A DNA stretch of 64,000 nucleotides. Source: a bacterium UBP15_UBA6099. Its GTDB lineage: Bacteria > UBP15 > UBA6099. Positions 7,899 to 21,409 of the stretch are shown piece by piece. The notes under the pieces are model-generated. The model did not search any database and was not told the origin of the DNA. It saw nothing but the letters and a program-made list of their open reading frames with translations. Where the stretch lies: positions 19,096 to 83,095 of the forward strand of contig DIWT01000004.1 of NCBI GenBank assembly GCA_002435745.1, written 5' to 3'. Position 1 is the stretch's first letter; each line of letters starts with the position of its first letter. A program made the position numbers and the translations under genes.

Positions 7899-8099
7899 TG
7901 TGTAACCTCATCTCCGCCGGGGACGCTGACTGCGGATGCGCGTCCGCCGAGTGTCATAATGATAGCGCCTGTGACACGAATGTCCATAGAAAAGAATAAT
8001 GGTTTATGGGCTTTGTAGCTTCTGAACAAAAAGACAATAGTGAAAATACAATTCTGCGTTATTAAGATGGGAACAACAGGAAAACAATATTTCTCACCA

Positions 8100-8128
8100 T
8101 TGACAATAAGTGAATTTGGCATTAATAT
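8100..8128 (+). promoter_or_regulatory. Candidate sigma-70-type promoter of the island cassette
   Basis: TTGACA (8100-8105), 17-nt spacer, TAATAT (8123-8128). It lies ~40 nt upstream of the first island ORF. Confidence 0.4.
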
Positions 8129-8168
8129 TGGCACCTAATCTGAATCAGGCTTTTCATACCCAGCCGCG

Positions 8169-8750
8169 ATGGGGAGTGTAGTTTTGAAAAAATATTCTAA
8201 AGAAAAATATGGCAATACGTTGCTTCAAATCGAAGTGTTTATACCAAAGAGATTGACAAATCTAGGTAAGCTTGTCGAACTTCTTGAAAACATGCTTGAT
8301 TTCAGAAGAGCGAAAGAAGATCTGATTTGTCGAGCAAATGAAATATTTGAGCAGACAGAATGGGGCAATGAAGGAATAAAGAATATAAAACAGGCTAAAA
8401 ATAGAATTAAACAGATAGAAAAATGCATTCATGGATATTCTATTTATGAGGTTGACGGGGCTTTCGAGACTTCATGCGACATGAAGACCAGCAAAATAAG
8501 AAAATCGGATGTGAGGATTTGTGAAGAAAGAACAATGGTTGTTAGAATGCTTGCATACGCCGATCCAACCGAGGAGGAAAAGAAGGATAACGTTGATTTT
8601 TTCAATACGAGAAGCGTTGTCGACGCGCTTTTAGTTGCAAATGAATATTTGGCATTTAAGATCGCAAGCGATGTTGCTGAGGAGGATGAGATTTGGGTAA
8701 CAGCAAGTAAAGTATGGTCAAGTATCTGGAAAAAACATAGCGATGACTAA
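8169..8750 (+). CDS. Hypothetical protein (193 aa), first gene of the AT-rich island
   Basis: This is the only long ORF in the interval, and its codon usage matches the island. No motif recognised. An alternative TTG start at 8184 lies 7 nt after GGGGAG. Confidence 0.55.
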   Translation: MGSVVLKKYSKEKYGNTLLQIEVFIPKRLTNLGKLVELLENMLDFRRAKEDLICRANEIFEQTEWGNEGIKNIKQAKNRIKQIEKCIHGYSIYEVDGAFETSCDMKTSKIRKSDVRICEERTMVVRMLAYADPTEEEKKDNVDFFNTRSVVDALLVANEYLAFKIASDVAEEDEIWVTASKVWSSIWKKHSDD

Positions 8751-8931
8751 AATACTGGAGATTGGAGAGTATGACATAAATTGAATAGTGGGCGGCGCAT
8801 GGCTGATTTCACAATGGATTTAGTATCATTCGGAATAATTTAAAGACATTGACAAAGAATCGATTAATGTCTTAAATTTTAAGACAGAATAAATGTATGA
8901 AAAATGAAATATAATATAATGGGGGGCTAAA

Positions 8932-9078
8932 ATGTTTGAGGACGATAAGGGATTGATTAACAATAATGAAATCGAAAATGATACACTGGAATTGGAATGG
9001 GAAGTTGCTGTTCCAGTTGATAGGTCAAGAGTAAGCCACATGTATTGTTTTAAAAACTGTTCCGTTAACTCTAATTAG
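8932..9078 (+). CDS. Candidate RiPP precursor peptide (48 aa), not in the supplied ORF track
   Basis: The ATG is preceded by GGGGGG with a 5-nt spacer. Translation: MFEDDKGLINNNEIENDTLELEWEVAVPVDRSRVSHMYCFKNCSVNSN. It has an acidic N-terminal half and a C-terminal CxxxC. It sits 111 nt upstream of the RRE-rSAM-SPASM gene on the same strand. Confidence 0.55.
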   Translation: MFEDDKGLINNNEIENDTLELEWEVAVPVDRSRVSHMYCFKNCSVNSN

Positions 9079-9189
9079 AATGGTTAGGGAGAACATCAAA
9101 CTGAAATCTTCTTGAAGGAGTGATATACTTTTTTCGAATTTAAATATGAAGGAAAAGAAGTAGCAAAACAGACAGTTAGAACAACTTTA

Positions 9190-10503
9190 TTGTTACATCA
9201 CTCTTATGCTGTTCCTCAAAATGTATCAGTTGTTAGAAAAGACGATGTTATTTTGGTAATTAATCCACAAACAGCTAATTGGCTGGTGCTAAACGATATT
9301 GAATTAGAAGTATATTTTTTGCTCGCAGAAGGAATAACAATAAAAAAGGTCATAGAGAAGATTTCTAAAAAAAGCAACTGTAATCAACATGCCTCTTCAA
9401 TTGTCAAAAGATTTCTTGCTCAATCGGAAGCTAAACAATTCAACAAAACTGTTGGGACTGTGTTCGCAGATTCATTTGGGATGTATGTTTTTCTAACATT
9501 TGACTGCAATCTGAAGTGTAGTCACTGTTTTCTATACGATAAACCACGACTCGGAGATCCTCTTGAAATTGAACAATGGAAAAGAATACTCATTGATTTT
9601 CAGCTTGCCGGAGGAGAAAAGATAACATTATCTGGAGGGGAACCGACACTTTTTGATTCCTTTGCAGATATCCTTGTTTTTGCACATGGCATTGGATTGA
9701 AAGTGACATTATTGACAAATGGCATGATTTTGCATTCGGAACTACTAGAATTATATTCTAACAATGTAGATGAACTCCAGATTAGCCTCGATGGACCGGA
9801 AGAGATTAGTCACGAGATGATAAGGGGAAAGGGAACTTACTTTAAGACATACTCAAACATAAAAAAAGCGTTAGACAAGGGCGTTATGGTTACTATTGCC
9901 ATGACGCCAACTTTTGAGACATTTCCATTTTTCGAAGAGCATTTTGTTCGATTTGCGAAATCTTTACTTAATGAATACTCAAATGTAAATGTTAAATTGA
10001 CACAAAAGCTTCTTCGATCAAAAATGTCGATTTATTCGGATACGGATATGAATAAATATTACGCAAAAGGAAATAGACTGATTAATAATCTTTATGAGGA
10101 TTATTCCATCAATGCGTTTTATTTAGACCACCCTGTGAATACAATACGACGCAATTGTGGTTATGGCGAGATATCAGTTATTCCAGACGGAACCGTGTAT
10201 TTATGTAGTAGGATTTGTGATTTGAAACCAGTTGCAAATTTAAAGGAATTAAAAATGGTAAACGTGATACAAATTGCACGAGAGGAGAAAGAGAGGGCTT
10301 CAGTGGAGAATATCATCCCATGTCAGCATTGTTGTTTAAGGTATATCTGTTCTGGTGGTTGCAGAATAGACGACATCCCTGATTTTTGTAATGGACAATT
10401 GACTGTAGATTGTCCTGAAGAAAGGAAGCAACAAATATTTGACATGATGATAGAATCAAACAATATGTATTTCAATATAGAGTATAAACCAAATAATGAA
10501 TGA
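9190..10503 (+). CDS. Radical SAM/SPASM peptide-maturase-like enzyme with a PqqD-like (RRE) N-terminal domain
   Basis: CxxxCxxC motif (FDCNLKCSHCF) and GGEPTL. C-terminal auxiliary-cluster cysteines are present (CGYGEISVIPDGTVYLC...PCQHCCLRYICSGGC). The N-terminal ~90 aa fit the PqqD/RRE pattern (VILVINPQTANWLVLNDIELEVYFLL..GITIKKVIEKI). The start is TTG; there is no in-frame ATG upstream. Confidence 0.8.
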   Translation: MLHHSYAVPQNVSVVRKDDVILVINPQTANWLVLNDIELEVYFLLAEGITIKKVIEKISKKSNCNQHASSIVKRFLAQSEAKQFNKTVGTVFADSFGMYVFLTFDCNLKCSHCFLYDKPRLGDPLEIEQWKRILIDFQLAGGEKITLSGGEPTLFDSFADILVFAHGIGLKVTLLTNGMILHSELLELYSNNVDELQISLDGPEEISHEMIRGKGTYFKTYSNIKKALDKGVMVTIAMTPTFETFPFFEEHFVRFAKSLLNEYSNVNVKLTQKLLRSKMSIYSDTDMNKYYAKGNRLINNLYEDYSINAFYLDHPVNTIRRNCGYGEISVIPDGTVYLCSRICDLKPVANLKELKMVNVIQIAREEKERASVENIIPCQHCCLRYICSGGCRIDDIPDFCNGQLTVDCPEERKQQIFDMMIESNNMYFNIEYKPNNE

Positions 10504-12898
10504 AGAACATAAACATAAAAGCATATTAATTATATTTATAAATTGGGCTCATCAGCCTAGGATCAGGATAGTCCAGCGAACATATGCTGCTAGAAACAGC
10601 CCCTCTCCCAATGCAATAAAAGATATTGATCATATCAATCCATCATTGATTGCGCAATTTCCTGACGATCTTGACAAAAAGTTGTTGGGTTGGCTGATGG
10701 TGCCTCACAAAGCATTGCTTCCAGACCCGGTCAGGGTCAATGATATACCTGTTGGAATAATCAATGAATACATAAAGCGCAAGCGTGCCTATTATTCTCC
10801 TTCAGGAAAAAACAAATCCTTAAAAAGAATATATTCTGTAGATATTGACATCCCTAATGTTGGTGTATATTCTTGGAGTATCAATGAACGAAATCTAATT
10901 TTGAGTAGTAGTTTTATTGGCGACGATATGGTTATCATTGAGAAACATCCTATTATGATAATCTCAAGAACAGAAAACAATAATTATGTTGGTATTCCAT
11001 ACGCAAGGGTAAAACACAACGATGGTTATGTGCCTTTGTTTTCTTTTAGTAAGGAAGCGACATTAACACTGCTAAGTCAATTAATTAAATGTGCAAGATC
11101 AGAAGATTATCTTTTGTGGTATTTTCCTGACAACATGTATGAATTGTCATTATCGATTGAAACACTTATAAACGATGGTTGGGATATCGAATATGATGAC
11201 AAGAAAAGAGTTGTAAAAACGACTCGATGGAATATGAAAGCAAATGATAAAACCGATTGGTTTGAAATTGATGGAGTTGCTCAATATAATGACAGCACAT
11301 TGTCTATATCAGAAATGCTTGCGGCATTGAGAAAGAGGTCGGCTTTTGTTGCGTTAGAATCAGGGGGTATAGCGGTTCTTCCTTCAGATTGGATAAAAAA
11401 TATTATTCCAATGGAACCATATCTCTCTGCAAATATGAGAATATCCAGATCATTCGTTGGATTAATAAGTGCGTCAACAAGCATCAATTCAGAGAATAGT
11501 ATTAGTTACAAAATAGCAAGAAAACTTATCTCAGCGCAAAACAATTATGAACCGGTATTATGGGATGGTAAATGTCTGAAACCATATCAGAATTGTGCTG
11601 TAAATTGGCTTAATGAAGCATATAAACAAAACATTGGATGTCTTCTTGCGGATGAAATGGGATTGGGTAAAACCATTGTTACTCTTGCTCACCTGTCTTT
11701 ATTTAAGGGAGATCATCTTATAGTAGCTCCAGCTTCAATCATATCTAATTGGATTCATGAAATTGAAGTAAATTTACCTAACGCAATGTGGTCTCTATGG
11801 GGATCAAAAGAAGAACAATCTGATTCTTCAAGAACCAGCATATATTTAATGAGCTATCAAACCATGCTTAGAAACATAGATGCGATAACTATGAAGCGTT
11901 ATATGGTAGCAGTATTCGACGAATCACAGTATTTAAAAAACTCATTTTCGATGACGGCGAATGCAGCAAGGAAAGTTAAATGCAATCAAGCTATCGCATT
12001 AACAGGAACACCAATTGAGAATAATGTATCGGAGTTGTGGAGTCATTTGAACCTTGTTGCGCCGAATTGGCACAATAATCGAAGGAATTTTGAGACTATT
12101 TGTAGCGAAGCAACCAAGAGTGATGCCTCGTTGATTCATCTTAGAAAAGCTTTGTCTCCATTTATATTGAGAAGAACTAGAAGTGATGTTTTAAAAGATT
12201 TACCTGATTTGAATATCGAGATAATAAGATGTGAGTTGAGTGAAGACCATCTAAAGCTCTACAAAAAATGGATGATATCAGCAAGAAAGGCTTTTTCTGA
12301 CCCTGAGCATAGAACAAGAAAAAAAGGTGCGGTGTTAGAAGTGTTGTTAAGATTGAGGCAAATCTGTTGTGACCCGCTTTTGATAACACAAGACTATGAT
12401 GGTGATGTTGTTGTGTCAGGAAAAACTGAAGCAATATTAAATGCTATTATTGTGATTTCTGAATATGACAAATTATTAGTGTTTTCACAGTTTTCATCAT
12501 ATTTGGAGTTATTAAAAACCTTACTAGATAAGCATTTTGTGAATAATTTACTATTGATCGGAACTACTGGCAACAGAGATGATGTGATAAAAGAATTTAA
12601 AGAATCAGAAAACACAAATGTATTATTAGCAAGTCTTAAAGTTGGAGGCGTCGGATTGAACTTAATAGAAGCTGCTAACGTAGTATTATGTGATCCATGG
12701 TGGAATCCTGCTGCAGAGATGCAAGCATGGTCAAGAGCATATAGAATGGGGCAAAAGAAAAATGTAAATGTTATAAAATTTGTGTGTAAAAACACTATAG
12801 AAGAACGCATATTGGAGCTTCAAGAAAAAAAAGCTACACTGAATCAATTTGTGCCAGAAAAAATATCAAGCAAAGAAATTATTGAATTATTGAAATAA
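10496..12898 (+). CDS. SNF2-family ATPase/helicase (800 aa) with an uncharacterised ~350-aa N-terminal region
   Basis: SNF2_N motifs (LKPYQ, LLADEMGLGKT, DESQYLKN, ALTGTPIENN) and helicase-C motifs (SLKVGGVGLNL, DPWWNPAAEMQAWSRAYRMGQ). The ATG overlaps the rSAM stop by 8 nt (ATGAATGA). Confidence 0.9.
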   Translation: MNEEHKHKSILIIFINWAHQPRIRIVQRTYAARNSPSPNAIKDIDHINPSLIAQFPDDLDKKLLGWLMVPHKALLPDPVRVNDIPVGIINEYIKRKRAYYSPSGKNKSLKRIYSVDIDIPNVGVYSWSINERNLILSSSFIGDDMVIIEKHPIMIISRTENNNYVGIPYARVKHNDGYVPLFSFSKEATLTLLSQLIKCARSEDYLLWYFPDNMYELSLSIETLINDGWDIEYDDKKRVVKTTRWNMKANDKTDWFEIDGVAQYNDSTLSISEMLAALRKRSAFVALESGGIAVLPSDWIKNIIPMEPYLSANMRISRSFVGLISASTSINSENSISYKIARKLISAQNNYEPVLWDGKCLKPYQNCAVNWLNEAYKQNIGCLLADEMGLGKTIVTLAHLSLFKGDHLIVAPASIISNWIHEIEVNLPNAMWSLWGSKEEQSDSSRTSIYLMSYQTMLRNIDAITMKRYMVAVFDESQYLKNSFSMTANAARKVKCNQAIALTGTPIENNVSELWSHLNLVAPNWHNNRRNFETICSEATKSDASLIHLRKALSPFILRRTRSDVLKDLPDLNIEIIRCELSEDHLKLYKKWMISARKAFSDPEHRTRKKGAVLEVLLRLRQICCDPLLITQDYDGDVVVSGKTEAILNAIIVISEYDKLLVFSQFSSYLELLKTLLDKHFVNNLLLIGTTGNRDDVIKEFKESENTNVLLASLKVGGVGLNLIEAANVVLCDPWWNPAAEMQAWSRAYRMGQKKNVNVIKFVCKNTIEERILELQEKKATLNQFVPEKISSKEIIELLK

Positions 12899-12899
12899 A

Positions 12900-13475
12900 T
12901 CATAGCGGTTTGTGCCAGTTTTTGTATATGCCGCCGTAAGCGCCGGTGTCGTAGAGGTGGGCGATGACGAGGGCGACGGCGTTTTTGAATCCGGCGTCGC
13001 CGGAGATTGCGAAAGCGAGCGGGCCTGTAGCAGCGGAATAGTAATAGACTACGGACGCATGGGCGTTGTTCGGGACGGATGGGGCGGATATGACCGCCGC
13101 CGGGTCGCCGGGGAGCACGATATTGATTTTTGCTCCGAGAGCTGACGCGATGAATTTTAGCAGGTCGGGTTCGAAGCCGCGCGCGACGCCGTATTCATCC
13201 CTGAAGCACATGGGAGGGCGTTCGCAGTCCACCGCCGCGGCGATGATGCCGGAAGCGCGAGCGGCGCGCAACGTCTCGGAGTCCCCTGCGGCCAGTTCGA
13301 CATCCGCTGCGAGAACGCTTTGCACGGGGTCTCTGGCGGTGGCGGCGGGAACGGTTTCCGAGGGGACGGCGGACGGATCTTGACCCCGGGGGCATCCGGA
13401 AATCAGGACGGCAACTGCCGCCATAACCGCCAGCGCCGACGCGCGTTTCAACCTGTTGTGTTTCGGTTCTATCAT
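12900..13475 (-). CDS. Lipoprotein with a short solute-binding-protein-like domain
   Basis: Signal peptide with lipobox (VLISGC). It resembles SBP_bac_3 (GFEPDLLKFIASALG), though the domain is short. Confidence 0.55.
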   Translation of the reverse strand: MIEPKHNRLKRASALAVMAAVAVLISGCPRGQDPSAVPSETVPAATARDPVQSVLAADVELAAGDSETLRAARASGIIAAAVDCERPPMCFRDEYGVARGFEPDLLKFIASALGAKINIVLPGDPAAVISAPSVPNNAHASVVYYYSAATGPLAFAISGDAGFKNAVALVIAHLYDTGAYGGIYKNWHKPL

Positions 13476-15913: not shown

Positions 15914-18484
15914 TCATTTATTAATTGACATGTTATAAAAAACACGACTGTCCTCGGCGCTTAGCACAGTATCGTAAAGGCCGATGTCTTCGCCTTCGTG
16001 CTTATTGACGCCTATATAAATTAGACTGGAATCTTCGTATCGTTTAAACTTATAGACAGCGTCATTCATCAATGCGCTATTGAATACTCCAAGGCTTACC
16101 AACAACTCGAACTCTTTCATAGTCAGGCCGGTTACTTTCTTGAACAAACCCGGCTCCAGTTGCGTGATGACATCCTTCAGACATCGCTCTCGATAATCGG
16201 TCAAATACATAAAGATTGGCAAACGCGTGGCGAACTTGATAAGTTTTTCCTGAATCTGCTTCCGCAAGCTTTTGTATTCCTTTTCCTCCTCGGTGAGCTT
16301 CTTCTTTTCCTTTGTGGAAAGCTCTTTGTCATTTGCTTCCTTTCTCGCCTTTTTCACGGCTTCCGACTTGTTGATAATAGTCTCGATGTCCTGATTGAGG
16401 TTGCGAAAGCCTTCAATTCTCATTAGCGCATCCATAGCGGCTTTGTTGCTCATGAGCCGTTTCAGGGCTTCGTTATCCACATTAACCAGCAAAGCGCTTT
16501 CCCAGCGCCTCGCCAAAAGAGTTGCTGTAGTTCCACTCATCGCCATATCCAGAATGCCTGCGGCATTGATCTCTTTCATTGAACTGCCGTCATAGGCTAA
16601 CACTGGAAGAAAGTTTATAAACTCCGCCACCTTCTTTTCGGGATTGGACTCATCGACATTCAGTCGGCAACTGTAATCGGCGATCTGCCGCAAAGCTCTG
16701 TCCGGCGCGAAATCAAAGACATAGCATTCCTCTTTAATGATTTGCTCCCGATTCGGCGCTGTGTTGTCGGGATTCCTGATTGACCAAGGTGATTGCACGC
16801 GGAAAGCAGCCTGAAAATAGGTCTCGGGACTGGACGAATTCCGCAACATGAGGATGCCGGTCCACGGCCTTACCGTGACTCCTGTGGTCAGTTTGCCGCA
16901 TGACAGGGTAATTGTTTTGGTTGCTAAGGGATCGTCCATGGCCTCCTGCACGGGCGGCAAAGCGGCAACGCCAATACCGGCGTCGCTTCCCGCCGCAACG
17001 ATTACTTCGTAATCGCGATAGAACTTATTCTGTTTCTTCGCCATAAGGTTGCGCATTGCGTGACACGAGGCAACACTGGGCAGAAACCAGAAGGTGTGCG
17101 ATAAAACATTCAGTAATCGCGCATCGGAAAACGGCATCGGCGGTTTTTGAGCGCCCAGTTTCAAGTTGTCAATATTTGTTGCCGAGAATGAGCCGCGTAT
17201 CAAATCAAGCCACTTCTGCACTTCATCCGTGTACGTAAATTTCGCCTTGTTTCCCGCCCCGGTAGCGGAAAAAAAAGTGTTAAGATCGAACTCATTGAAC
17301 TCGCCCTGCATGGCGATTTCGCGTATCGAATCGGGCAGTTGATAGGTCATTAACACCATTCGAGGAAGCGCCGCGTATGGATTGTCCCCGCCTGTCCATT
17401 CCTGCTTGGCCCGCTGCTCGTCCGAATACGTCCAGTTAAAAATCTGCTCCTCGATGAATTCGCCGGACGCAATGGCCCTAAACGGCGTGCCGGATAGATA
17501 GAGATATGCATTCGTGGTAATCGGCATAATCTCTTCGTCAAAATCCTCAATGCCGGCGCCTTCTCCAAACTCGATTTCTTTCTTGTCCTCCGCCGCAAAA
17601 AGCTCTCTGGCGTTTTCGCGCCACGCGCCGTAGTGATACTCGTCAAGGATGACACAATCCCAGTTGGTCTCATGCGCCCATTCATTCTTGGTCTTGAGCC
17701 CCCCGGTGCTTTTGTTCTTGCCAAGGTGATCCTGAAAAGAACCGAAACAGACGAAAGGCTTCTTCTTGTCCGCGTCTTCGTATGATAAACCGCCCGGCGA
17801 GATAAACTGCCACCCTTTGAAATCAATATGGCATTTCAAGTCTTCTTCCCATGCGTTCTGCACTGCGGGCTTGAAGGTCAGCACAAGAACCTTGCGCCAG
17901 TCCATTTTCTTAGCGAGCTGATAGGCGGCAAAGGTTTTGCCAAAGCGCATTTTAGCGTTCCATAGAAAGCGCGGCGACTTATCCTTGTTTTCCTTTCTGA
18001 AACTCTTGAAATAAGCGACGGTCTTTTCCACCGCCGCTTCCTGTTCCGGTCGCATCTTGAAATCAAGCGAACGGTTTTCCTCGTTCATTTCACCAGTTCT
18101 CAGAGCAATGACCGCCGCTTTTACCTGTTTTGCCGAACATTTGAACCATTCCCCTTTGGGATTTTTGACGCCGATGGCTCGTAAGCGACGGTGAACATCA
18201 TGGTCGGTGAAGACCGTGCCGTCATTGCGCATTGCGAATTCTTCAAGGACGATCCGATACGGCGGTTTTCCCGGCCTCAATGTCGGATATTGCTGTTCCA
18301 CGCGCGTCCGGGCGTCCGCTAATGTATAGCCGACTTTGAGCAATCCCGCGTATTGAGGATTTGTGTCCTCGTAGGCGTAGATGGTCGGTTTGGAATCCGG
18401 CCGCTGAGGGAAGAAATTATCAGGTTTCCTCGGCATTGTTTCCCAGCTTCTTTTTAGTTTTTGCGGGCGGAAGAAAGTTGTCAC
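15914..18484 (-). CDS. GIY-YIG (T5orf172-like) nuclease domain fused to an SF2 DEAD/DEAH-box helicase (putative restriction subunit)
   Basis: The N-terminus fits the GIY-YIG/T5orf172 pattern (TIYAYED...GLLKVGYT...R..Q...HDVHRRL...GEWFKC). Walker A is MRFGKTFAA and motif II is LDEYHYG. A more likely start is the ATG at 18436. Confidence 0.75.
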   Translation of the reverse strand: MTTFFRPQKLKRSWETMPRKPDNFFPQRPDSKPTIYAYEDTNPQYAGLLKVGYTLADARTRVEQQYPTLRPGKPPYRIVLEEFAMRNDGTVFTDHDVHRRLRAIGVKNPKGEWFKCSAKQVKAAVIALRTGEMNEENRSLDFKMRPEQEAAVEKTVAYFKSFRKENKDKSPRFLWNAKMRFGKTFAAYQLAKKMDWRKVLVLTFKPAVQNAWEEDLKCHIDFKGWQFISPGGLSYEDADKKKPFVCFGSFQDHLGKNKSTGGLKTKNEWAHETNWDCVILDEYHYGAWRENARELFAAEDKKEIEFGEGAGIEDFDEEIMPITTNAYLYLSGTPFRAIASGEFIEEQIFNWTYSDEQRAKQEWTGGDNPYAALPRMVLMTYQLPDSIREIAMQGEFNEFDLNTFFSATGAGNKAKFTYTDEVQKWLDLIRGSFSATNIDNLKLGAQKPPMPFSDARLLNVLSHTFWFLPSVASCHAMRNLMAKKQNKFYRDYEVIVAAGSDAGIGVAALPPVQEAMDDPLATKTITLSCGKLTTGVTVRPWTGILMLRNSSSPETYFQAAFRVQSPWSIRNPDNTAPNREQIIKEECYVFDFAPDRALRQIADYSCRLNVDESNPEKKVAEFINFLPVLAYDGSSMKEINAAGILDMAMSGTTATLLARRWESALLVNVDNEALKRLMSNKAAMDALMRIEGFRNLNQDIETIINKSEAVKKARKEANDKELSTKEKKKLTEEEKEYKSLRKQIQEKLIKFATRLPIFMYLTDYRERCLKDVITQLEPGLFKKVTGLTMKEFELLVSLGVFNSALMNDAVYKFKRYEDSSLIYIGVNKHEGEDIGLYDTVLSAEDSRVFYNMSINK

Positions 18485-19280
18485 CGGTCACCACGCCGCG
18501 TCCGGTTTTCCGCTCCAGTTCCAGCCTCGCCTTTTTTGCGATTCTTCCGCCTTTTCTGCCCGCCTGCGCATTTTCATCCATGCCGGTTGCTTCAACGCTC
18601 TCCGCAATCTGGCGGGTGGAAAGCTCCGCTAAAGCTGTAAAAATCAGTTCCGCCTCGCTCATGTGGTCGCGTAGGTTTTGAGTTTTGAGGTCCTTTATCT
18701 GCTTGTGTTTCTTGACCGAAACCCCGCTCCATTCTTTGTGAATTATATTGGTCAGAATGGCGTATTCGTCTTCGCCTTTAATCTCGTGGTCTTTCCAGTA
18801 ATCGGTGAGTTTATTGCGGGTTTCCTGCCCCATCATCCGCTGCTGAATCCATTTTTCGCTTCTGCCGCTCTGTTGCCAGTAGTCGCGCGCCCGGTCAAGG
18901 GATCGGGCCGGATCGCTCATGTCCTGAATGCGCTCGTAACCCGCTTTGGCAAGCCATAGCTTGATGGGTTCCGCTCTGGGACTGGGAACCGACTGTATGA
19001 TTCGCAGAAGAGCCTCCGGGCCGGCCGCGTCGGTCAGGTATTTTTTCCCGTCAGCGGCTTCCATTTTCAGTTGGTGACAATTTGTCACCGACTGATTTCC
19101 CTCTTTCTTGAGGCGTTCTTTCAACTTGTTCCAGTACTTCCGGGCAGTCTGATAATCCGGCTGCTGAATCAGCGCGGCGATGATATCCACAACGGAAAAC
19201 AACCATGTTTCTGTCTTTTCATCATAAATCCTGCGGATTTTAAAGTTTTCAAAAACCGCAAGCGCCTTTTCTTCATTCAT
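18420..19280 (-). CDS. Bro-N / DinD-like (DNA-damage-inducible protein D family) protein
   Basis: The N-terminal pattern FENFKIRRIYDEKTETWLFSVVDIIAAL and the overall 286-aa layout match my recollection of this family. It overlaps both neighbouring genes. Confidence 0.55.
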   Translation of the reverse strand: MNEEKALAVFENFKIRRIYDEKTETWLFSVVDIIAALIQQPDYQTARKYWNKLKERLKKEGNQSVTNCHQLKMEAADGKKYLTDAAGPEALLRIIQSVPSPRAEPIKLWLAKAGYERIQDMSDPARSLDRARDYWQQSGRSEKWIQQRMMGQETRNKLTDYWKDHEIKGEDEYAILTNIIHKEWSGVSVKKHKQIKDLKTQNLRDHMSEAELIFTALAELSTRQIAESVEATGMDENAQAGRKGGRIAKKARLELERKTGRGVVTGDNFLPPAKTKKKLGNNAEET

Positions 19281-20781
19281 TGTTAATCTCCATCGGTCGA
19301 ACTATTAAGTCAATAAAATCAATTTCGTCGTCTGACAAACCAAAATGAGCGAAGAGTTTTTCGTCTGTCCATATTTTTGACATAGGCAGAAGAGGCACAA
19401 ATGAAAATTTGTCCTTTGTGTTGTCCTGTGTGTTTTTGCGTAAGCCCACCAGAAACCGCAGAAACTTTGTTCTAAGATATTTGTCCAGATTTTTTGCGGC
19501 GCTTTCGGTTTCATAAGCTCCAACTACAATGTAGGTCTCGGTGCAAGCGCTGGATGGAGGCGCTATAATCGGCTTGCCCATTATCATTCGTGGATAATCG
19601 CGAGCTTCACCTCCTTCCCCGTATGCCTTAGAAATTAGAACCTTCCACAAATCCAGCAACTCCATTCCATTTTTGATGTCCGATTTTTCTATCCATCCGA
19701 CAGTTTTTGTTGCATACAATTTAATGTTGCCTTTTCCAGTAGGCCGGACAAATGTCGGGAGCCCAAATGGTTTTCGACTATAGATTTGTTCACTTATTGA
19801 TGTGTATTTCTTTTCTTTTACCTTTTCGAGAATCGAAATAGCCTTATTGAATCGAACAAATGAATCAAATTGATCCAAAGAGCGCTTCATCGTATCATCC
19901 ATGCCACTCATGCGTGTAGTTACTTCACATTGACCGCTGTAATCCCGCTCCCATAAAAAATAACATACACCGCCAATCACCTTGACGCCGGGGAAAACAT
20001 CAGATGCTATTGGATAGTCAACCAAATGAGAGATTCTGCGATCCTTTAGCATTGTATCGCGAAAAACATCCAGCCCTTTCCCACCGGCAAACCATCGGGA
20101 TGGGATAATCATTGACAAATATCTCGGTTCAAGTTTTTTAGCTTGTTCGACAAAATTGTGATAAATAGGAGATGAGCCTGTGCTATCTCCAGCATCACTC
20201 AACTGATACGGTGGATTACCTATAATTACATCAAATTTCATATTGAATATCGCCTCCGGATTTTCCGTGTGAATAAATTGATAGGCATGGGTTTCGAGTT
20301 CTTCGCCCCGCTCATAGCTTTCCTGACTGGCGCCGCAGAAAACGCAGCGCCCGTTTTCCCATGTGTGCTCCACTCGCTCAAAGCGAATATTCCCTTGCGG
20401 GTCGTCGAAAGTTTCACAGACGGAGTATTTTCCATTGGCCGTTTTGGAGCAGTAAACAGAACGGCGGGAAAGCAACGCGGTCAACTCAGTTATTGCCACG
20501 CCGAAGATCTGGTTCTTGAAGATGTGGTTGATTCGAGCCTGCCTGTCCGGGATTTTTTTTTCAAGCCCCGCATCCAACCGCCTTGCGATTTCGCGCGGAA
20601 ACACACCGGACTTACAGAACGGATCGAGAAACCGGGTGTTCTTATTGCCCCAGATTTCCGGAGGCAGCAAATCCAATATTTGATTAACCAATTGCGGCGG
20701 CGTGAACACTTCGTCGCTGCTCAGATTGGCCAGACAGGTCAGCACATCCGGGTTGTAGCTATTGCCTGTCAACATCGGCAA
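19273..20781 (-). CDS. Eco57I-type N6-adenine DNA methyltransferase
   Basis: AdoMet motif LDPFCKSGVF and catalytic motif IIGNPPYQ. The downstream pattern SPIYHNFVEQA...IIPSRWFAGGKGLD is typical of this family. Confidence 0.8.
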   Translation of the reverse strand: MPMLTGNSYNPDVLTCLANLSSDEVFTPPQLVNQILDLLPPEIWGNKNTRFLDPFCKSGVFPREIARRLDAGLEKKIPDRQARINHIFKNQIFGVAITELTALLSRRSVYCSKTANGKYSVCETFDDPQGNIRFERVEHTWENGRCVFCGASQESYERGEELETHAYQFIHTENPEAIFNMKFDVIIGNPPYQLSDAGDSTGSSPIYHNFVEQAKKLEPRYLSMIIPSRWFAGGKGLDVFRDTMLKDRRISHLVDYPIASDVFPGVKVIGGVCYFLWERDYSGQCEVTTRMSGMDDTMKRSLDQFDSFVRFNKAISILEKVKEKKYTSISEQIYSRKPFGLPTFVRPTGKGNIKLYATKTVGWIEKSDIKNGMELLDLWKVLISKAYGEGGEARDYPRMIMGKPIIAPPSSACTETYIVVGAYETESAAKNLDKYLRTKFLRFLVGLRKNTQDNTKDKFSFVPLLPMSKIWTDEKLFAHFGLSDDEIDFIDLIVRPMEINNE

Positions 20782-21409
20782 CCTCCAGAAAGTGCGTTAA
20801 CGGGTACTCTTTCACAGGCTCATTTAAGTATGCCTCGTTATTCTCATCGCTGAATATCATTAGTTGGTGTTGCTTGTCTACTAGAAACGAAAGCATGAAA
20901 TCGCGCCGCTTTAGCATGCTACCGTTGACCGGCGACCATTCAGAAAATATAATCGGTCGCGGATTGTTTCCCACGGTTTTCAGATCAAGCGCGTCTCCAT
21001 GAATAATATTGCGCTCAAGGATATATTTGACCGCATTCCGACATTCATTCCTTGCGCCGAATATAAAAAGGCGCGTGTAGTTCAGATCAAAGATGTCAAA
21101 AAGCCGGTTGCGACATTCCTGAACATTATCCTTAAGAATATCAATGCCGTATATGGAGGACACGGCAAGAACAGCATTCCTCTCGTACTCCAGTTGAATC
21201 TTTTCGTATCGGAATTCAACGACGCGCAATTTCCGTTCCAGAATTTCCGACAGAAAATTGCCCGTGCCGCATGCGGGTTCAAGAAACCGGGATTCGATCC
21301 TTTCTGTTTCCTGTTTCACCAGATCAAGCATGGCGTTGACTTCTCGTTTTCCAGTCAATACCTCGCCATGATCAGCGACCCTCTTCTTGGAGACAACTTG
21401 CTTTTCCAT
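20759..21409 (-). CDS. Short methyltransferase-like protein (AdoMet-binding motifs only, no NPPY)
   Basis: HGEVLTGKREVNAMLDLV (motif X-like), EPACGTGNFL (motif I), YGIDI and HGDAL are present. No (N/D)PP(Y/F) is found in the 216 aa. The gene overlaps the downstream MTase by 23 nt. Confidence 0.55.
   Translation of the reverse strand: MEKQVVSKKRVADHGEVLTGKREVNAMLDLVKQETERIESRFLEPACGTGNFLSEILERKLRVVEFRYEKIQLEYERNAVLAVSSIYGIDILKDNVQECRNRLFDIFDLNYTRLFIFGARNECRNAVKYILERNIIHGDALDLKTVGNNPRPIIFSEWSPVNGSMLKRRDFMLSFLVDKQHQLMIFSDENNEAYLNEPVKEYPLTHFLEVADVDRQ

Follow-up and report, generated by a model that had tools for sequence, protein, structure and literature searches.

The 286-aa gene within a restriction-modification operon

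The stretch of DNA analyzed here (the window) comprises 64,000 nucleotides (nt) of contig DIWT01000004.1 from the bacterium UBP15_UBA6099, and it carries, on the minus strand, a restriction-modification (R-M) operon in which a gene of the DinD/PDC-S13 family is embedded. This gene (18420-19280, an open reading frame (ORF) starting with ATG) encodes a protein of 286 amino acids (aa) with a Bro-N domain and a predicted DdrC-like C-terminal bundle. The core system around it consists of an Eco57I-type N6-adenine methyltransferase (MTase) of 500 aa on its upstream side (19273-20775, minus strand; Pfam Eco57I, E 2.9e-40; PADLOC MTase_II and REase_MTase_IIG, positions 1010-1320 of model PDLC03626) and an 840-aa protein with a T5orf172 (GIY-YIG-like) nuclease and a ResIII helicase on its downstream side (15914-18436, minus strand; Pfam, and PADLOC PDLC03626 positions 152-801). 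Since the nuclease-helicase and the MTase both match PDLC03626, which is a single fused type IIG model, the window holds a split version of the fused enzyme. The first core gene (20759-21409, minus strand) encodes an MTase-N-terminal-like protein of 216 aa with motif I and a weak MmeI_Mtase match, and it leads nearly all related systems. The similarity of this protein is limited to the motif I region at the N-terminus of an MTase (MAD2-like), its gene overlaps the start of the full MTase gene, and the protein may represent one piece of a split MTase or a regulatory component. The G+C content is 45-51% across the four genes, which thus make up an island between flanks of 62-65%.

The 286-aa gene starts at 19280-19278 and the MTase stop codon lies at 19273-19275, which gives an 8-nt overlap (19273-19280, minus strand), ATGAATGA. 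The junction reads AACAATGAATGA, or in codons ...CCG ATG GAG ATT AAC AATGAATGA, and the Shine-Dalgarno-like GGAG of the 286-aa gene comes from the MTase codons ...RPME. At the other end, the stop codon (18422-18420) is located 17 nt beyond the T5orf172/ResIII ATG at 18436, producing a 17-nt overlap (18420-18436, minus strand). Public gene calls on identical metagenomic contigs give the same gene boundaries, helicase start 18436 included, and the helicase N-terminus read from 18436, MPRKPDNFFPQRP, can be aligned with the N-termini of its homologues (MSKEFFPQRP). Scanning of the minus strand found no promoter-like or terminator-like site between the 286-aa gene and its neighbors, and the sole promoter-like site upstream of the operon (21511-21483) precedes the first gene, with regional site counts that are not above chance. 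The two overlaps, and with them the translational embedding in the operon, had been described in a sequence-only reading of the window and were confirmed from the ORF coordinates. With overlapping ATGs on both sides, the 286-aa protein is made in step with the R-M enzymes. A repeat search around the gene yielded neither terminal inverted repeats nor long direct repeats, and the only repeat common to both window junctions is the 7-nt AACAATG, of which 4 bases are informative.

Within the gene, an N-terminal Bro-N/winged-helix domain (aa 15-112; 18945-19238, minus strand) is followed by a C-terminal helical bundle (aa 139-259; 18504-18866, minus strand), which is homologous to the C-terminal domain of Escherichia coli DinD and probably to that of Deinococcus DdrC. 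The C-terminal tail (aa 260-286; 18423-18503, minus strand) is charged and predicted to be disordered (pLDDT 51-65), varies in the family alignment, and bears the new overlapping helicase start. Residue counts over the last 60 aa (8 K, 5 R, 7 E, and 2 D) agree with the Lys/Arg/Glu-rich C-terminus noted earlier.

Optional presence at the MTase-helicase junction

The helicase has a very large number of highly conserved homologues, the best 120 of which are 84-88% identical to it. In a reverse survey, all four window proteins were mapped onto 80 metagenomic loci whose helicases are 79-98% identical to that of the window, and 69 of these loci (designated, like the other loci compared here, by L numbers) had enough upstream sequence to be assessed. 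The 286-aa gene is present in 14 of the 69 and missing from 55, so it does not accompany the system wherever the system occurs. Where the gene is missing, the end of the MTase gene runs straight into the helicase ATG, with overlapping stop and start (ATGAGTAA); nearly all of them have an MTase ending in ...RPME(x)NNE*, a helicase ATG inside AACAATGAGTAA, an 8-nt overlap, and the helicase N-terminus MSKEFFPQRP. In the window, the ATG of the 286-aa gene fills exactly the slot that the helicase ATG occupies in the gene-less loci, while the helicase start is changed, its N-terminus now being read from an ATG within the variable tail of the inserted gene.

A neighbor-joining tree of 87 helicases requires at least 14 gains or losses of the 286-aa gene. 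Moreover, the same junction in sister loci holds other genes, encoding a RhuM protein (L149:4949-5992), full or truncated DUF1016/YhcG proteins (L160:4721-5998 and L156:5481-5996, also in L090), a PDDEXK_3 'GxxExxY' protein (L153:3275-3766), and an E. coli-type DinD (L145:764-1609). In L118, L072, and L090, an N-terminal remnant of an older copy precedes a complete copy of another subtype. Taken together, the 55 gene-less loci, the patchy distribution on the tree, and the variety of genes at the junction indicate that the 286-aa gene is optional cargo at an insertion hotspot, and that the core system is composed of the 216-aa MTase-like protein, the MTase, and the helicase. The sequence-only reading had set translational embedding against independent insertion, but this is a false contrast, because both hold for this gene.

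Two Hydrogenedentes-like loci (L018 and L123) show a further rearrangement, in which the MTase is deleted and only 34 aa of the first gene are left, joined directly to the DinD-like gene. An intact helicase follows the DinD-like gene in both, leaving a nuclease-helicase without its MTase.

Neighborhoods of homologous genes

More than 8000 close homologues of the 286-aa protein were found, and the matches within E 1e-3 fall into 9185 clusters at 50% identity. Scanning one genome per species gave at least 565 matches, of which the best 80 (73-85% identical, from more than 20 phyla) were used for a forward survey. Their neighbors are very diverse, with 484 BLAST clusters among 540 neighboring proteins and 128 and 168 Pfam families on the upstream and downstream sides, respectively. 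The systematic placement between an MTase and a T5orf172-helicase, which had been proposed as a way to check the sequence-only reading, was not borne out, as this arrangement occurs in only 7 of the 80 loci. An R-M gene lies within 4 kb in 20 of 79 loci, directly adjacent on the same strand in 16, and 59 of the 79 (about 75%) have no R-M gene within that distance.

Thirteen loci have a 4- or 8-nt overlap at the start of the family gene, and all 12 that were annotated (L008, with a 62-aa upstream ORF, being left out) are R-M or R-M-derived. For instance, with such overlaps, the gene is located between HsdM and HsdS in L011, between Mod and Res in L048, after a TaqI_C MTase in L028, and between a large Eco57I/MmeI-type MTase and a PsyrA-like protein in L020, L031, and L082. 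The order Mod-gene-Res is also found in L067, with a gap of 15 nt upstream and an overlap at the downstream junction only. The large Eco57I/MmeI-type MTase, the DinD-like gene, and a 155-aa DprA/PsyrA-like protein form a recurrent trio in L014, L020, L031, and L082, with overlaps of 1-8 nt.

In addition, a few genome loci have Cas3 or Cas1 genes as neighbors, and on plasmid pACLO of Arcobacter cloacae (L167, 5007-5903), the family gene is inserted between cas4 and cas1 of a type I-B CRISPR-Cas operon. In three loci of the Planctomycetota-Verrucomicrobiota-Chlamydiota (PVC) group (L007, L012, and L083; Verrucomicrobiota and Kiritimatiellota-like metagenome-assembled genomes), it lies between ruvA and ruvB. 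A 120-aa 23S-rRNA-IVP/bAvd-like protein accompanies it in two of these three. The family is rare on plasmids; on L172 (Thiothrix pTfr153) and L169 (Chlorohelix), an E. coli-type and a window-type gene come after parA/parB partition genes. The family is nearly absent from phage genomes, with four small records among 50,697, and a prophage or phage origin was rejected on these tiny matches. We also considered a split homing endonuclease, suggested by the adjacency of Bro-N and T5orf172 (cf. ICP1 gp88, PMC8263062), and rejected it because this helicase occurs with or without the gene, which is embedded just as much in type I and type III systems.

The association of the family with DNA-cutting defence systems is far from random, and a sensor or accessory role of the 286-aa protein is favored by its recurrent embedding in R-M and cas operons.

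Family identity

The 286-aa protein matches Pfam Bro-N (PF02498) over aa 15-112 with 28.6 bits (gathering cut-off 25.6) and the PADLOC PDC-S13 model PDLC04920 over aa 1-281 (E 4.5e-116); PHROG 15286 matches as well, and an NCBIfam scan gave no match. A 48-sequence profile of the window family aligned with aa 142-248 of E. coli DinD (hhalign probability 79%, E 1.6e-5), and PDLC04920 matched DinD at aa 122-250 (E 2.2e-16). DinD of E. coli K-12 is itself covered over its full length by a sister PDC-S13 model, PDLC04919 (E 2.4e-121). BLASTP between the 286-aa protein and DinD was not significant (E 1.4), and hence similarity at the level of orthologues is not seen. The Bro-N/DinD-like identity assigned earlier is right at the level of architecture and distant homology, with Bro-N in both proteins and both in PDC-S13.

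PDC stands for phage defence candidates, predicted through 'guilt-by-embedding' in BREX, DISARM, and type I R-M systems (Payne et al., bioRxiv 10.1101/2024.01.29.577857); the readable part of the supplements of that study holds no row for PDC-S13, Bro-N, or DinD. Our literature search likewise found no paper naming PDC-S13. Embedding of the kind that defines the class, in the same orientation and within multi-gene defence systems, is found in the window, beside R-M genes in 16 of 79 loci, and in cas operons. The gene adds a further case to a class that is known but uncharacterized, namely the PDC-S13/DinD genes embedded in defence operons.

The PADLOC model of a type I specificity subunit, PDLC03083 (717 positions), matches E. 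coli DinD (L165:2761-3585) with its first 267 positions (E 3e-114), which hints that DinD-HsdS fusion proteins may exist. A fusion scan of longer family members revealed no R-M domains and only sporadic unrelated fusions (low-molecular-weight phosphatase, HTH_3, and acyltransferase).

Predicted fold and match to DdrC

An AlphaFold2 model, built on the family alignment of the 48-sequence profile, reached a pLDDT of 91.7 and a pTM of 0.76. It predicts an N-terminal domain made up of a β-hairpin and a winged helix, followed by a long helix, a C-terminal bundle of helices, and a disordered tail. In a Foldseek search against the PDB, all six matches with E ≤0.001 were chains of Deinococcus radiodurans DdrC from three entries (E 3.7e-7 to 7e-5, probability 1.0, 228-258 aligned columns), and both parts of the DdrC fold, the winged-helix N-terminal domain and the C-terminal helical bundle, are found in the predicted model. 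The family profile also reached DdrC by sequence, within the C-terminal domain only (E 1.4e-3), and a PDB sequence search with the single 286-aa sequence returned nothing.

In the alignment, the invariant or near-invariant family residues W144, R148, R155, K193, K196, R204-D205, and E211 correspond to W116, R120, R127, R164, R167, R173-D174, and E180 of DdrC, and K199 of the window protein corresponds to DdrC K170. A previous study of DdrC counts R164 and K170 among the four residues of the C-terminal domain that contact DNA and assigns R120 to a 'holding clasp' (PMC11347143); it is this clasp residue that pairs with the invariant R148. Judged by sequence position only, the invariant R16 and R93 lie at places similar to those of DdrC R14 and R81. 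The predicted fold is DdrC-like, and several, though not all, of the DNA-contact positions appear to be conserved in the alignment. The DdrC homodimer binds pairs of single- or double-strand breaks, compacts nicked DNA, and circularizes linear DNA, and both papers describe it as having no identifiable homologues outside Deinococcus (PMC11347143, PMC9303277). No paper linking DdrC and DinD was found in our literature search.

Conservation and selection

Close homologues of the 286-aa protein are 73-87% identical across more than 20 phyla. Between the 286-aa gene and ten homologues from different contexts, the nonsynonymous divergence (dN) is 0.09-0.18, the synonymous divergence (dS) ranges from 1.3 to saturated, and dN/dS is well below 0.1. 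Saturated dS combined with low dN means that the identity across phyla reflects very strong purifying selection rather than recent transfer. Helicase identity at these loci is 79-88% (98% in the near-identical L085), and MTase identity is 54-63% at most of them. The T5orf172-ResIII helicase keeps its 79-88% identity across many phyla (loci L085-L164).

The 286-aa protein is among the least variable at the locus, whereas a specificity subunit is expected to be variable, and this constraint fits a universal ligand such as DNA structure or RecA. The sequence-only reading had proposed a role as the specificity subunit, which is contradicted by 73-87% identity beside a variable MTase. Neither the variable recognition region nor the obligatory presence of an HsdS-like, target-recognition-domain protein was found, with no Methylase_S match in Pfam and the gene lacking in 55 of the 69 loci. 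C proteins, the proposed regulatory counterpart, are small Xre-type helix-turn-helix proteins of about 80-100 aa. The window protein differs from them in its length of 286 aa, its fold, and its lack of an HTH_3 match, C-box operators not having been searched for. Hence, what the sequence-only reading had observed at the locus stands, while the specificity, regulatory, or integral-subunit role drawn from it is not supported.

A palindrome within the coding sequence

A palindrome of 27-29 nt (19067-19095) lies inside the coding sequence at codons 63-71 (QSVTNCHQL), where the 27-nt near-perfect form reads CAGTCGGTGACAA-A-TTGTCACCAACTG. Across 94 distinct homologous segments, it is kept by covariation that includes amino-acid changes. 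The covarying codon pairs are Val GTG/His CAC, Val GTT/Asn AAC, Val GTA/Tyr TAC, Ala GCT/Ser AGC, Ser TCG/Arg CGA, Thr ACG/Arg CGT, and Leu CTG/Gln CAG, and a second subtype (ELSTICRQL) has a different, again perfect palindrome. For the 12-pair stem in these segments, 92% of the cells are paired, compared with 81.9 ± 0.6% in 500 shuffles, and slid controls pair at no more than 41.5%. Seven pairs show changes on both sides, double-change cells number 116 versus 36 ± 4.3 in the shuffles (reached by 0 of 500), and the covariation score is 0.294 versus 0.119.

Each of the 94 sequences has Watson-Crick pairs at all seven inner positions, and G.U intermediates do not occur. This pattern fits a palindrome that matters as DNA, or one that template switching maintains, better than it fits an RNA helix of the usual kind. 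As single-stranded DNA, either strand folds well (z -4.5 and -6.6), and Rfam scans found no family match. At the equivalent codons, E. coli-type dinD genes carry palindromes with 10-bp arms (L145) or 7-bp arms (E. coli K-12, L165).

Of 73 cases, 8 are remnant copies or isolated palindromes outside intact genes, and these break off at the palindrome's 3' edge (L016, L064, L068, L090, L118, L072, L149, and L108/L110). For instance, L016 has one 15 nt upstream of a complete gene, and in L149, the order is MTase stop, MNKE, palindrome, and RhuM gene. The palindrome may serve as a site at which cassettes recombine and are exchanged, form a cruciform or respond to supercoiling, or act as part of the mRNA.

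Proposed role and alternative explanations

On balance, we lean toward the view that the 286-aa protein is an accessory member of the DinD/PDC-S13 family with a predicted DdrC-like fold, which is carried as optional cargo and made together with the R-M enzymes, and which would bind DNA structure without choosing targets. The gene has been inserted repeatedly and independently at the stop/start junction between modification and restriction genes, taking an ATG that overlaps the MTase stop and supplying, through its variable tail, a new overlapping ATG for the nuclease gene. Its product might recognize DNA structure (breaks or nicks, ends, and possibly hairpins) rather than sequence, and might act on the DNA breaks made by the neighboring nucleases. 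Most likely, it would limit damage to the host chromosome, for example while a mobile R-M cassette becomes established; alternatively, it might keep the RecA-dependent processing of DNA breaks in check, as has been reported for E. coli DinD. Restriction targets would presumably not be chosen by it.

Several points weigh against this view. With about three quarters of the close homologues lacking an R-M gene within 4 kb, any function must work alone too, and PDC-S13 is a phage defence candidate only. The sequence similarity to DdrC is marginal and confined to the C-terminal domain, and a PDB search with a profile restricted to the N-terminal domain failed to reach DdrC. Moreover, DdrC R142 is not conserved, its counterpart in the alignment being D171, and DdrC R127 is aligned with R155, so that R128 is one position off. 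Finally, the direction of the effect, protection of self-DNA versus enhanced restriction, is pure inference.

The gene might instead be an autonomous second line of anti-phage defence, a PrrC-like guard or abortive-infection module triggered by phage DNA, phage proteins, or anti-restriction factors. We consider this possible but rather doubtful. Membership in PDC-S13, a class predicted from embedding in defence systems, would be in line with it, as would the PrrC paradigm of R-M-embedded effectors, the RhuM and DOC genes in the same niche (PMC3710099), the other embedded candidates at the same junction, and the fact that most homologues stand alone without R-M partners. However, no recognizable effector or toxin domain is present, and the predicted DdrC-like fold accounts for the whole protein. 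Diversification is usual for defence effectors that recognize phage proteins, but this protein belongs to the most conserved ones at the locus. Moreover, E. coli dinD is part of the SOS response, with a product that acts on RecA, and is not known as a defence gene.

A selfish recombination cassette, spreading by means of its internal palindrome and duplicated ATGAGTAA-type junctions and using R-M operons as safe mobile landing sites without any benefit to restriction, seems unlikely to us. It would account for the covariation of the palindrome in 94 homologues, for the remnants and isolated palindromes broken at the 3' edge, for the nested copies in L118, for the short direct repeats at both junctions (AACAATG in the window and 13 nt in L143), and for the 14 or more gains or losses. 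Yet no recombinase, transposase, or nuclease domain is found in the protein or consistently beside the gene, saturated dS between copies points to an ancient rather than recent spread, and the protein is under strong purifying selection over its whole length, which speaks for a function in the cell. Template-switch repair, furthermore, can keep perfect palindromes without any role in mobility.

Finally, an integral subunit, in which the Bro-N protein would stand in for a specificity subunit or C protein by recognizing DNA or controlling the operon, is very improbable: the tight translational coupling on both sides, the DNA-binding Bro-N fold, and the hint of DinD-HsdS fusions from PDLC03083 speak for it, but the gene is missing from most closely related systems, its conservation relative to the MTase is the reverse of that of a specificity determinant, it is unchanged in type I, type III, and IIG-like R-M systems, cas operons, and non-defence contexts, and it has neither a Methylase_S or HTH_3 domain nor, in window-type fusions, any R-M domain.

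To return to an accessory protein that binds DNA structure, the translational coupling of its gene is preserved to the base in cas operons and in no fewer than four R-M architectures, and its conservation is unusual for genes of defence islands. These features suggest that it interacts with RecA or with something universal to broken DNA. If correct, the link to DdrC would offer a testable mechanism for thousands of proteins and an evolutionary origin for DdrC, and the palindrome would be a possible cis-acting recombination or regulatory element within a protein-coding gene. Beyond the known PDC-S13 class, the DdrC link and the covarying palindrome are most worth following. As a speculative wider reading, to which we give little weight at present, DdrC could be a divergent branch of a pan-bacterial DinD/Bro-N superfamily (about 9000 clusters at 50% identity) at home at the junctions of DNA-cutting immune operons. 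Its typical homes might be R-M systems of types I and III and IIG-like ones, T5orf172-helicase systems, and type I CRISPR-Cas. Its members would then be sensors of breaks or hairpins that couple restriction to the handling of DNA damage, and the palindrome would be a recombination or regulatory site for cassette exchange.

Another candidate defence module in the window

Elsewhere in the window, an island of 35% G+C at about 8000-13000, in a genome of about 60% G+C, holds genes on the plus strand at 9190-12898. They include a radical S-adenosylmethionine protein with viperin-like PADLOC matches (pVip, E 3e-22), whose stop overlaps the start of the next gene, and an 800-aa SNF2 helicase matching DpdE and ZorD models (E 2e-89). 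The pair may constitute another defence module.

Comparison with known systems

PDC-S13 is a single-gene candidate defined by its embedding in multi-gene defence systems, and the window gene is likewise embedded. The hosts from which the PDC families were defined are BREX, DISARM, and type I R-M systems, and here the family is also found in T5orf172-helicase, type III, and IIG-like R-M systems and in cas operons. PrrC/RloC, RhuM, Fic/DOC, and DUF1016/YhcG are similarly optional, same-orientation genes between R-M genes (PMC3710099, PMC9881135). However, PrrC and RloC combine an ABC ATPase with a HEPN nuclease effector, whereas the 286-aa protein has no enzymatic domain and is far more conserved than typical embedded effectors. 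Phage antirepressor-type proteins with Bro-N or KilA-N share the N-terminal Bro-N fold, with weak structural matches in BFVD (E 1e-6 to 1e-3, TM ≤0.33), but the C-terminal domain of the 286-aa protein is not of the KilAC/ANT type.

E. coli DinD (b3645) also has an N-terminal Bro-N domain (Pfam, 32.4 bits) and a similar length of 274 aa, and it has been reported as an SOS-inducible inhibitor of RecA filaments (Uranga et al. 2011, as cited in PMC4457935). The two proteins differ in their best PDC-S13 models, PDLC04919 for DinD and PDLC04920 for the window protein. E. coli dinD is a stand-alone LexA-regulated gene, whereas the window gene sits in an operon, and an E. coli-type DinD is also found at the MTase-helicase junction in L145. 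As for DdrC (PDB 7udi, 8u0g, and 7qvb; N-terminal domain 8u1j), its β-hairpin and winged helix, long linker helix, and C-terminal helical bundle follow one another as in the predicted 286-aa model. The C-terminal motifs W-x3-R, R, K/R-x2-K/R-G-x-K, R-D, and E-L are common to DdrC and the family, and the sequence identity between the 286-aa protein and DdrC is 14-16%. DdrC, of about 231 aa, is radiation-induced and described as restricted to Deinococcus (PMC11347143, PMC9303277), whereas the family of the 286-aa protein extends over more than 20 phyla and occurs in defence operons.

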